Source: an uncultured Gammaproteobacteria bacterium
GTDB taxonomy: Bacteria > Patescibacteriota > Microgenomatia > Woykebacterales > RBG-16-39-9b
Direction: 5' to 3'
Assembly (NCBI GenBank): GCA_964349395.1
Contig: CAYGGA010000004.1
Span: 1 to 59,301 of the forward strand
Length of the DNA stretch: 59,301 nt
Part shown: piece after piece, positions 16,864 to 59,229 of the stretch
Numbering within the stretch: position 1 is the first letter of the stretch
Layout of the letters: each line of letters starts with the position of its first letter
Position numbers and translations under genes: made by a program
The notes under the pieces: generated by a model
Databases searched by the model: none
Told to the model about the DNA's origin: nothing
The model's input: only the letters and a program-made list of their open reading frames with translations

Positions 16864-16931
16864 TGTCATTGCGAACATAGTGAAGCAATCTCAAACAGGA
16901 TTGCCACGTCACTTCGTTCCTCGCAATGACA
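16864..16931. repeat. RPE-like palindromic repeat, family 1, copy 1
   Basis: TGTCATTGCGA...GCAATCTC...GATTGCCACG...CGCAATGACA. Confidence 0.85.
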
Positions 16932-29793: not shown

Positions 29794-29867
29794 TGTCATT
29801 GCGAGCTTTAGCGAAGCAATCTCGACCTAAAGGGATTGCCACGGAACTAAAGTTCCGCGCAATGACA
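29794..29867. repeat. RPE-like palindromic repeat, family 1, copy 2
   Basis: TGTCATTGCGAGCTTTAGCGAAGCAATCTC...GATTGCCACG...CGCAATGACA. Confidence 0.85.
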
Positions 29868-34180: not shown

Positions 34181-35452
34181 ATGGCCCTTAGAACTGAATT
34201 TGCAGCCGCACTAAATCAAGCCGCTTCCGAGCGGGGTATTGACGTGGAGGAGATTGTTTCCATCATGCAGGAAGCCATCAAGGCGGCTTACCGAAAGGAT
34301 TTTGGTGGGGAATTAGAGAATTTAGAAGTAACTCTAGATGATAGTAGTGGGGAAGCGAGAGTTTTTGAAGATGGCAAAGATGTCACCCCGGGTGGTTTTG
34401 GGAGAATTGCCGCCCAAACTGCCAAACAAGTGCTATTGCAAAGAATCAGGGAAGCAGAAAAAACCGCTATTTTGACAGAATTTGAAAAAAGAGTAGGTAC
34501 GATTATCAATGGTATGATCCAGAGGATTGAAGGACCAAATATTGTAGTCGACTTGGGTAAAACCGAAGGGCTGATGCCGCAAAGTGACCAATCTCAAGGT
34601 GAAAGCTATCGTTTAAATCAAAGACTCAAATTTTATATTGTTGGTATTAAGGAAGGCCCTCGGGGCCAAGACATCTTAGTCTCGCGCGCTCACAAAGGGT
34701 TAGTCGAAGGACTTTTCAAACTAGAAGTGCCGGAGATTGGTTCTGGCATCGTGGAAGTAAAAGCAGTAAGTCGGGAAGCGGGAGTGCGCTCCAAAGTAGC
34801 AGTTTCTTCGAAACAAGCTGGAGTGGATCCGGTGGGTAGTTGTGTAGGTCAAAAAGGGGTTCGGGTCCAAGCCGTGATTGCTGAACTTGGCAATGAAAAA
34901 ATTGATGTAATCCAGTACTCCGAAGAGACTTCTAAATTTATTTCGGCCGCTCTTTCTCCGGCCAAAGTGGACAACGTGAAGCTGGAAGAAGAGGGAAAAA
35001 CCGCCCATGTAGAAGTACCGGAAGATCAGCTCTCTTTAGCAATTGGAAAAGATGGACAGAATGTGCGCCTCGCGGCCAAACTCACTGGCTGGAGGATTGA
35101 CATCCAGGGTGCGAATGTCATTGCGAGCAATAGCGCGGCAATCTTAAAGCAGGAAGAGGAAGTTAAAGAGAAAAAAACTAAGAAGAGTGTGAAGGCTAAG
35201 AAAATCGATAAAGTAGAAAAAGAACCAAAAAAGAAGGTTGCTAAGAAAACAACTAAAACCAAAAAGAAAGATGAAGAGATCACCACGGCTTCGACTGACA
35301 GCCAGCCTCGTGATGACAAGGATACAAGTGAACCAAAAGATGAACAGGAAGAAAAAGTTGAAGCTGCTTTGGAGGCCCAAGAAGAAGAAAAAGCCTCCGG
35401 GGACACTGAGGAGCAGTTAAAAGTTATTGAGGATGGTCAGAAAAATGGCTAA
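34181..35452 (+). CDS. nusA: Transcription factor NusA with long Lys/Glu-rich C-tail
   Basis: FGRIAAQTAKQV, S1 and KH domains, REAGVRSKVAV, LAIGKDGQNVRLA; AAGGAG SD before ATG 34181. Confidence 0.96.
   Translation: MALRTEFAAALNQAASERGIDVEEIVSIMQEAIKAAYRKDFGGELENLEVTLDDSSGEARVFEDGKDVTPGGFGRIAAQTAKQVLLQRIREAEKTAILTEFEKRVGTIINGMIQRIEGPNIVVDLGKTEGLMPQSDQSQGESYRLNQRLKFYIVGIKEGPRGQDILVSRAHKGLVEGLFKLEVPEIGSGIVEVKAVSREAGVRSKVAVSSKQAGVDPVGSCVGQKGVRVQAVIAELGNEKIDVIQYSEETSKFISAALSPAKVDNVKLEEEGKTAHVEVPEDQLSLAIGKDGQNVRLAAKLTGWRIDIQGANVIASNSAAILKQEEEVKEKKTKKSVKAKKIDKVEKEPKKKVAKKTTKTKKKDEEITTASTDSQPRDDKDTSEPKDEQEEKVEAALEAQEEEKASGDTEEQLKVIEDGQKNG
35117..35317 (+). repeat. Family-1 RPE-like repeat split and embedded in frame in nusA
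   Basis: Left arm GTCATTGCGAGCAATAGCGCGGCAATCT (24 of 28 identical to the copy at 29795); right arm GAGATCACCACG...CTCGTGATGAC at 35276-35317. Confidence 0.75.
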
Positions 35453-36908
35453 AGGCGAGTCTGTAACCCAAGTAAAAACTGCCACTCGACCGCCAGTTGT
35501 GACCATCATGGGCCATGTTGATCATGGAAAAACCACTCTTCTAGACAACATTAGAAAAACTCATGTGGCCGATCGTGAGTATGGTGGGATTACCCAACAC
35601 ATCGGTGCTTACCAAGTGGAAGTGAATGGCAAATTAATGACTTTTATTGACACTCCTGGCCATGAAGCATTTGCACAAATGAGAGCTAGAGGGTCCCAAG
35701 TAACTGATATCGTCGTTTTAGTCGTGGCTGCTGATGACTCGGTCATGCCCCAAACCAAAGAATCAATTGCTCATATCCAAGAAGCCAAGGTCCCTTTTGT
35801 AGTCGCGGTCAACAAGATTGATACTCCGGGGGCCAACCTCGAAAGAGTAAAAAAACAGTTATCAGAAAATAGTGTTTTAGTAGAAGGGTACGGGGGTAAT
35901 GTTCCCCTTGTCAGTCTGTCTGCTAAAACTGGAGAGGGGATTAAGGAACTTTTAGAAATTATTCAACTTCTAGCTGACTTAGAAGAGTTGGAAAGTGACC
36001 CTAAGGCCCCTTTTCAAGGGGTAGTGATTGAATCCCAACTTGATAAATTCCGTGGCCCAGTCGCTTCTATATTAGTAAAACAAGGAACTTTGAAATTTGG
36101 CGACCCGTTGATTGCTGGAAATGCCCGAGGGAAAGTTAAAGCACTTATTAATGATAAAGGGGTGCAAGTAAAAGAAGCTCTGCCCAGTGCTCCCGTCGAA
36201 GTTATGGGTTTTAGCCAAGTCCCTCCGGTCGGAACGATTGTAGGTGAGACCACAACTGCGGTTGAGGAAAAGAAAGTGGAGGAAGAAACCCCTACTGATT
36301 TATTTGCGAGCGAGAAACAAGAGCTAAAACTTTTGATGAAAGCTGATCGTTTAGGGTCTTTGGAAGCGCTTGATTACGCCATTAATCAAATTCCAACCGG
36401 AGACTTGAAGGTGAGACTTATTTTGAAAGAAACTGGGGATATTACGGAATCTGATGTATTGCTAGCTGCCTCTTCTAAAGCAATTATCATTGGCTTTAAT
36501 ATCAAAGTTTCCCCCAGTGTGCAGAAACTAGCGGATATTGAAAAAGTAAATATCCGTACCTTTAATGTTATTTACGAACTTCTAGATGAGTTAAAAGATG
36601 GTCTGGAAGTCTTGCTCAAACCAGTAGAGACTGAAGAAATTCTAGGTCAAGCTAAAGTCAAAGCAGTTTTCGAATCTTCCAAAGGACCAGTGGCTGGTTG
36701 TGAAGTAGTCGATGGTAGTCTCAGAAAAGGCGATCTAGCTAGAATTACGCGTAGTGAAGTAGAAATTGGTCAGGGTCGGATCAAATCTCTCAGGTACCAA
36801 AAAGAAGATATTCCTAAAGCTGAGAAGGGGGAAGAGTGCGGTGTCATCTTGGACCCTTCCTTTGAAGTTGCCATTGGTGATATAATCATAGCCATTAAAA
36901 AATTGTAA
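35445..36908 (+). CDS. infB: Translation initiation factor IF-2 (lacking N-terminal domains)
   Basis: [38 protein letters not shown]. Confidence 0.97.
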
Positions 36909-43962: not shown

Positions 43963-44028
43963 TGTCATTGCGAACGAAGTGAAGCAATCTCAGATTGCCA
44001 CGTCGGCTTAAGCCTGCTCGCAATGACA
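43963..44028. repeat. RPE-like palindromic repeat, family 1, copy 3
   Basis: TGTCATTGCGAACGAAGTGAAGCAATCTC-AGATTGCCACG...CTCGCAATGACA. Confidence 0.85.
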
Positions 44029-59158: not shown

Positions 59159-59229
59159 TGTCATTGCGAACGAAGTGAAGCAATCTCAGAGATCGCCACG
59201 CCTTCGTTGCCCTCAGGCTCGCGAGGACA
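59159..59229. repeat. RPE-like palindromic repeat, family 1, copy 4
   Basis: TGTCATTGCGAACGAAGTGAAGCAATCTC-AGAGATCGCCACG...CTCGCGAGGACA. Confidence 0.8.

Follow-up and report, generated by a model that had tools for sequence, protein, structure and literature searches.

A structural question is raised by the 3' part of nusA in this CPR/Patescibacteria genome, namely how two inverted arms of a dispersed palindromic repeat come to lie within a single open reading frame, separated by 129-132 nt of Lys/Glu codons. The window, which is the whole stretch of 59,301 nt analysed here, is contig C4 of a genome of 953 kb in 35 contigs, and the names borne by its nearest NusA homologues point to Candidatus Woykebacteria. 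In the reading preferred here, held with a probability of about 0.7, two repeat units stand head-to-head with their tags outside around 132 nt of pre-existing NusA tail, and would have arrived by two insertions and been kept as translated passengers.

The earlier note on this DNA would have been refuted by a nusA stop codon before 35117; the frame is in fact uninterrupted by stops from 34181 to 35452 and closes with TAA at 35450-35452. Pfam places NusA_N, S1, KH_5 and KH_NusA_C (278-310) in the protein, and the last KH domain (KH2) covers residues 275-311. The left arm begins three residues past the conserved GWRIDIQ, and its peptide VIASNSAAI corresponds to residues 313-321. In the AlphaFold model (35-sequence alignment), pLDDT is below 50 at residues 311-389 and 405-423, and the former segment is coil; the tail is thus a permissive site predicted to be disordered. 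Each arm begins on the first base of a codon, the arm regions correspond to the peptides VIASNSAAILK and DEEITTASTDSQPR, and the open frame suggests that both are translated. The locus is identical, with zero differences, in four metagenome assemblies (runs of one study), and since the same sequence was assembled in all four, the split repeat is not an assembly chimera. The features are collected in Table 1.

Table 1. Features of the nusA locus and copies of the repeat in the window and in other genes (positions refer to the window, or to the contig named before the colon)
Feature	Position	Strand	Description
nusA CDS	34181..35452	+	423 aa from ATG; domains NTD, S1, KH1 and KH2, followed by ~111 aa of disordered tail
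Left REP/SRM unit, short type	35117..35143	+	27 nt, possibly to 35146; outside tag TGTC; VIASNSAAI, phase 0
Lys/Glu-rich NusA tail segment	35144..35275	+	LKQEEEVKEKKTKKSVKAKKIDKVEKEPKKKVAKKTTKTKKKDE; ancestral and not from the repeat; as in tails of repeat-free relatives
Right REP/SRM unit, long type, inverted	35276..35317	+	42 nt; outside tag; EITTASTDSQPRDD, phase 0
Acidic end of NusA tail	35318..35449	+	KDTSEPKDEQEEKVEAALEAQEEEK...; also in nearest relatives
infB	35445..36908	+	ATG at 35445 overlaps the nusA stop (ATGGCTAA)
Intergenic head-to-head doublet (reference copy of the earlier note)	29795..29866		long hairpin, z=-5.8
Further copies in the window	16865-16930, 43964-44027, 59160-59228		
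LeuRS	C9:33605-33676		internal; clean insertion of ~21-24 residues relative to 17 orthologues
PolA			linker insertion
DnaX			internal
Mfd	C6:38627-38698		72-nt doublet inside the RID domain (CarD/TRCF RNA-polymerase-interacting)
NusG			N-terminus
DUF2298 membrane protein			internal, another phase
Histidine kinase	C5:56337-56408		C-terminal end
278-aa protein of unknown function			internal
UvrA	C1:86914-86990		stop codon within the repeat; last 12 residues repeat-encoded
L1			one 27-nt unit, inside the N-terminal extension

The repeats form a genuine family. Searching with the core GTCATTGCGA and pairing the hits yields 17-18 head-to-head palindromic doublets genome-wide, together with several partials and single units. 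The doublet consensus is GTCATTGCGAGC-(6-20)-GCAATCTC-loop-GAGATTGCCACG-(12-30)-CTCGCAATGAC, bordered by T on the left and A on the right; the T stands before GTCATT at 22 of 24 loci, and every listed ..ATGAC end has the A after it. The units are 26-43 nt long and contain an outer stem of 5 bp, an internal loop and a CTC(A) tail. All of them possess GTC-ATTGC...GCAAT-C, and the tags of a doublet face outward. Each half of a doublet forms a hairpin of its own (ATTGC...GCAAT), with an inner stem that varies among copies; as single-stranded DNA, compact doublets fold into one long hairpin (z about -5.5 to -5.8). With a strict pattern for the unit, 28 matches are counted in this genome, whereas 40 relatives contain 0-10 apiece, and those of the same family mostly contain zero.

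Both NusA arms are members of this dispersed palindromic family. The left arm GTCATTGCGAGCAATAGCGCGGCAATCT (35117-35144) fits the strict unit pattern and shares 26/28 positions with C10:32231-32257. With the family profile in nhmmer over the whole 953-kb genome, where true members score at least 11.6 bits and noise at most 7.5 bits, it reaches 24.2 bits (E=2.6e-5). The earlier description of this arm, 24 of 28 nt identical to the copy at 29795 and encoding VIASNSAAI after the last KH domain, is confirmed by alignment and by Pfam. The right arm (35276-35317) is absent from the nhmmer output for the genome with both the right-arm and the whole-family models, because both conserved halves of its stem are altered, and ungapped and local pairwise statistics were used in place of the profile. 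Together with two flanking bases (35274-35317), it matches the right arm of C21:3152-3195 at 32 of 44 positions, ungapped and at equal length, whereas the best of 1.9 million random or unrelated positions in the genome-wide null reaches 26/44. Its local alignment score is 20, versus a null maximum of 14.5 (2989 random windows), and its peptide EITTASTDSQPRDD is similar to EIASSTDSPRND from the copy in PolA. The pairwise similarity and the peptide resemblance thus point to a right arm of the same palindromic family in phase 0, as had been proposed from the sequence.

The outer tag is carried by both NusA units, and their stems differ in state. Conserved positions are intact at 19/19 in the left unit and changed at 4/23 in the right unit, a difference that is not significant. 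In the right unit, ATTGC has become ATCAC and GCAAT has become GTGAT, both by transitions, and Watson-Crick pairing inside the unit is retained. These paired changes could reflect selection on the hairpin or templated mutation within a quasi-palindrome, and are no proof of selection. The copy at C1:86914 displays a comparable paired change, ATCGC/GCGAT. Folded as DNA, the single NusA units give weak structures that do not surpass shuffled sequence (z -0.06 to -0.92).

A Lys-rich tail is situated directly behind KH2 in all of ~70 nusA loci from relatives, and in 30/30 whole-genome relatives a Lys/Glu-rich tail of ~40-60 aa immediately follows GW(R/K)IDIKGA. Most relatives with such a tail carry none of these repeats, and family matches in relatives' nusA number 0 among 33 loci and 40 further metagenome loci. 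In one relative with 0 repeat units (G006), KEETEIKEKKTKKPVKIKK occupies the place of our KQEEEVKEKKTKKSVKAKK, and its tail reads GLVKEETEIKEKKTKKPVKIKK compared with our ILKQEEEVKEKKTKKSVKAKK. Motifs common to our NusA and those of relatives include EVKEKKTKKSVKAKK versus EIKEKKTKKPVKIKK, and KKTTKTKKK versus KKKTTKKTTKK. Protein search yields only three close NusA relatives, with a core identity of ~90-93%; all three lack both arms, and in each GWRIDIQGAN is followed by a Lys-rich block ending in KKTTKK-like motifs, collinear with ours. Two of them (P0002 and P0003) retain the full order of KH2, Lys-rich block and acidic end DEQEEK..LKAQAEEKE, collinear with ours, the acidic end being aligned to DDQEQRVVDTLKAQAEEKE and DEQEEKIADTLKAQAEEKE, respectively. 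Since it is shared with the nearest relatives, the acidic end is older than the repeat insertions. In the MAFFT alignment, P0002-P0004 show a gap of 30-36 nt at the site of the right unit. It was also considered whether the right arm might be older than the split and survive in decayed form in the nearest relatives; the P0002 stretch GCGGTTGCCGCT..CCCCAAGAC is suggestive by eye but not significant (p about 0.17-0.23), and the idea was dropped.

The similarity of the interior to relatives' tails increases with core identity (rho=0.47, p=0.007). The interior is thus the pre-existing NusA tail and not an expanded repeat loop, a homology read from collinearity and short motifs because these tails are of low complexity. 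Aligning the NusA tails across relatives, as the earlier note had advised, gives a divided answer: repeat-free orthologues carry a peptide like the interior, which speaks against expansion of a loop, and they do not carry the arm peptides, as expected of inserted arms. The proposal that the element seeded part of the tail survives in part, in that the arms are in frame and orthologues lack them; the seeding itself does not, because repeat-free relatives have the tail. The repeats contributed about 23 of roughly 111 tail residues, and the tail itself is older.

A scan for other in-frame copies, also suggested before, is productive: ORF analysis of the genome finds about ten more copies inside or at the ends of other ORFs, among them LeuRS, PolA, DnaX, Mfd, NusG and L1, and nearly half of the repeat loci in the 0.95-Mb genome lie within genes. 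In-frame inserts in conserved proteins that are absent from orthologues, the criterion used for Rickettsia palindromic elements (RPE), occur in NusA, LeuRS, PolA and L1. The length of doublets inside coding sequences is a multiple of three in 8/8 cases and that of intergenic doublets in 4/10, and phase 0 (VIAS...PRND) is most often stop-free. This pattern of length and phase indicates a survivorship filter. In all relatives, the MGRPK start of L1 is conserved, so translation runs through the unit in its extension, and single units can persist in frame.

Several individual copies show further features. The Mfd copy places its 24 extra residues midway through a folded domain, not in a linker. 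The LeuRS and histidine kinase copies encode the identical peptide VIASNAKQSQPKGIATSPAAPRND, and their DNA differs at two synonymous loop positions (CAA CCT versus CAG CCC). In another relative (G003), LeuRS contains an unrelated insert of ~22 aa, QHALGSAAFADAKVSESFADAKV, with an internal direct repeat, exactly at the site of our REP doublet; a hotspot is conceivable there, as is a permissive loop. L1 (rplA, loci L075-L088) in this CPR family possesses a conserved N-terminal extension of ~60-100 aa starting MGRPK(I/V)K.IE. On the minus strand at C2:64041-64120, an ATG in the terminal CGCAATGAC appears to start a type IV pilin-like gene (MTSEAGQTLVEAIV...).

At one further locus, inverted units of the family at C1:22115-22146 (+) and C1:22486-22511 (-) bracket an ORF of ~100 aa on the minus strand that matches the GIY-YIG family (PF01541, E=2.5e-15). 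A degenerate third unit is found at C1:22452-22479. Ssn GIY-YIG proteins are site-specific ssDNA nucleases of cd10448 that cut beside their motif (PMC11893778), and the succession of unit, single-domain GIY-YIG gene and inverted unit is the NTS-ssnA-NTS architecture described for them in the same paper. Similarly, our TGTCATT-stem-AATC parallels the NTS CGTCATTCCC..GGGAATC, our GTCATT-hairpin-AATC parallels the Neisseria NTS CGTCATTCCCGCG..GCGGGAATC (PMC11893778), and directional hairpin units are common to our family and SRM/NTS (Chenal et al. 2025, PMC11893778). The published SRM string HGTCWYN(0-2)YYVSBRHN(0-5)WNVSBRGN(0-2)RNCYNB matches 0 family units and gives 2 unrelated hits in the genome, and our family is therefore a sequence variant. 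Judged by these likenesses, the family is a TGTC-tagged REP and a variant of the Ssn-related motif class, the Ssn-like gene with its units at C1:22115-22511 is likely its 'master' locus, and the Ssn-like nuclease may have had a role in the spread of the units.

Because the interior is ancestral, plain insertion of a compact doublet cannot explain the NusA pair. According to the preferred reading, the units would have arrived in this lineage after its split from the nearest sampled relatives, most likely by two separate single-unit insertions into the disordered, permissive tail. Their survival would have depended on three circumstances: unit lengths of 27 and 42 nt, both multiples of three; codon phase 0, which is stop-free more often than the other phases; and a disordered tail able to accommodate extra residues. 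The units would then be presumably neutral, translated passengers, which add VIASNSAAI and EITTASTDSQPRDD to a tail that they did not create. The unequal state of the two units, with 0/19 positions changed on the left and 4/23 on the right, hints at different ages, although the difference is not significant. A parallel for two single-unit insertions in one ORF is R. conorii uvrB. No NusA allele with only one unit occurs in the four runs holding the locus or in the metagenome scan, in which no NusA is closer than 79% identity.

The arrangement of the pair counts against two independent insertions. A short left unit and a long, inverted right unit would rarely be combined by chance alone, and the chance of two independent hits within 200 nt in the usual doublet arrangement is roughly estimated at a few per cent. 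Hence, an alternative in which a head-to-head REP/SRM pair formed round host DNA in a single step, or in which the first unit attracted the second, is the strongest of the rival readings, though still unlikely. In its favor, the short left unit, long inverted right unit, outside tags and T...A flanks reproduce exactly the layout seen in the 17-18 doublets and around the GIY-YIG gene, single units so arranged by coincidence would be uncommon, and dimers with 20-100 bp spacers and DNA between the partners are reported in PMC3733652. Single-strand breaks made by Ssn and repaired from another copy could provide a route, as for the pair that brackets the ssn gene. Nevertheless, no mechanism is known for such an event, and Ssn is shown only to cut ssDNA; the intact left unit (19/19) and the changed right unit hint, without significance, at unequal ages; and neither the 201-nt block nor its interior has a second copy in the genome. 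The more specific version, in which the NusA pair is the footprint of one Ssn-dependent event, by an SRM pair forming round host DNA or by homing of the second unit, is rather more doubtful. If it were true, Ssn/SRM would be truly mobile and could bracket, and potentially mobilise, arbitrary host segments including coding sequence, which would help to explain the clustering of units and the units surrounding genes in Neisseria.

Compared with the single-step alternative, growth of the loop is far less probable. Here, a compact element would have been inserted after KH2, and its short loop, expanding as the earlier note had supposed, would have grown by slippage to ~130 nt of Lys/Glu codons. 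Slippage can lengthen low-complexity Lys/Glu runs, and some loops of the family are A-rich and encode Lys (KPSIKKE in the loop of C21:3109). The account is contradicted by the Lys-rich tails of repeat-free relatives: the block is at the same place in every relative with no element there, specific motifs are common to ours and theirs, and our NusA lacks any second Lys-rich block to serve as the ancestral one.

Also very improbable, if anything a little more so, is a structural function in RNA or DNA, whereby the arms would pair at long range in the nusA-infB mRNA and so adjust the translation of infB or the stability of the message. RNA folding predicts a 12-bp stem (35116-35128 with 35305-35317), by MFE and by centroid alike, and REP dimers have been proposed as post-transcriptional elements (PMC3733652). 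However, the stability of the RNA fold equals that of shuffled sequence (z=0.0), the stem is found in no relative (33 and 40 loci), and the changes in the right arm, two positions per side, keep the pairing within the unit and weaken the pairing to the left arm. Chance resemblance or an assembly artefact, to which the failure of the profile HMM on the right arm might be ascribed, can hardly be credited when both arms are significant genome-wide and four runs assemble identically.

The nearest described relatives of the family are REPs tagged with CGTC/TGTC, which are mostly head-to-head dimers and include Neisseria dRS3 and R. conorii RPE-4 and RPE-6 (Di Nocera, De Gregorio & Rocco 2013, PMC3733652). 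Copies of CGTC REPs that lie inside genes code for 20-30 aa and favor repair, replication, tRNA-synthetase and RNA-binding genes, and some ORFs hold two single REPs (PMC3733652). Our family resembles them in the terminal tag, the stem opening with AT, the head-to-head dimers with tags outside, the in-frame intragenic copies and a similar bias in host genes. There are also differences: ours has a 5-bp outer stem ATTGC/GCAAT, a variable inner stem and a CTC(A) tail, whereas those in PMC3733652 have a stem of 8-9 bp, a loop of 4-5 nt and an unpaired CCA-like tail. In addition, the host belongs to the CPR/Patescibacteria, which is not among the five phyla surveyed there, and the NusA pair is unlike described REPs in that 132 nt of ancestral coding sequence lie between its units. 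Our family is a variant that fits none of the four CGTC families already described.

The comparison with Rickettsia palindromic elements made before the present analysis is apt, RPE-4 and RPE-6 being in the same CGTC-tagged REP class, and the suggested link to RPE follows from PMC3733652 equating these two with CGTC REPs. RPE-1, as Ogata et al. (2000) is presented in PMC3733652, is likewise a palindromic repeat carried in frame by essential proteins, whose surface or disordered sites tolerate it; unlike our units, it is longer, 100-150 bp, and inserted as one block. The inverted doublets that form one long hairpin, with single units alongside, also resemble REPINs (Bertels & Rainey 2011). Searching the literature with the sequence words of the repeat returned nothing relevant, and a further literature search gave no paper tying Rickettsia palindromic elements to GIY-YIG.

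The NusA case is a fresh example of an already known phenomenon. With it, an ultra-small CPR genome joins Rickettsia, Opitutus and proteobacteria, in which hairpin repeats of the CGTC/SRM class had mainly been documented as in-frame 'decoration' of essential proteins. The bias to repair, replication and RNA-binding genes noted in 2013 is seen again in a phylum far removed, and calls for an explanation. In annotation, peptides of the VIAS..AKQS..IATS..PRND type in CPR proteins are best read as repeat-derived inserts, not lineage-specific motifs. Furthermore, NusA offers a clean case of two units round ancestral coding sequence, useful for testing single versus paired arrival.

A RAYT was also considered as the mobilising enzyme and rejected, since the sole Y1-transposase gene is flanked by CGAGGTTCGACCTCG palindromes and not by GTCATTGCGAG units. 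This RAYT-like gene on C8 encodes 217 aa, with a Pfam Y1_Tnp/REP_Tyr_transpos-like match of 34.1 bits and an NF047646 match of 49.2 bits, which is under the cut-off of 80. The palindrome CGAGGTTCGACCTCG flanks the gene (C8, locus L034, 1306-1320 and 1985-2025) and is present twice downstream; together, the palindrome and the RAYT-like gene are a second, separate REP-like system.
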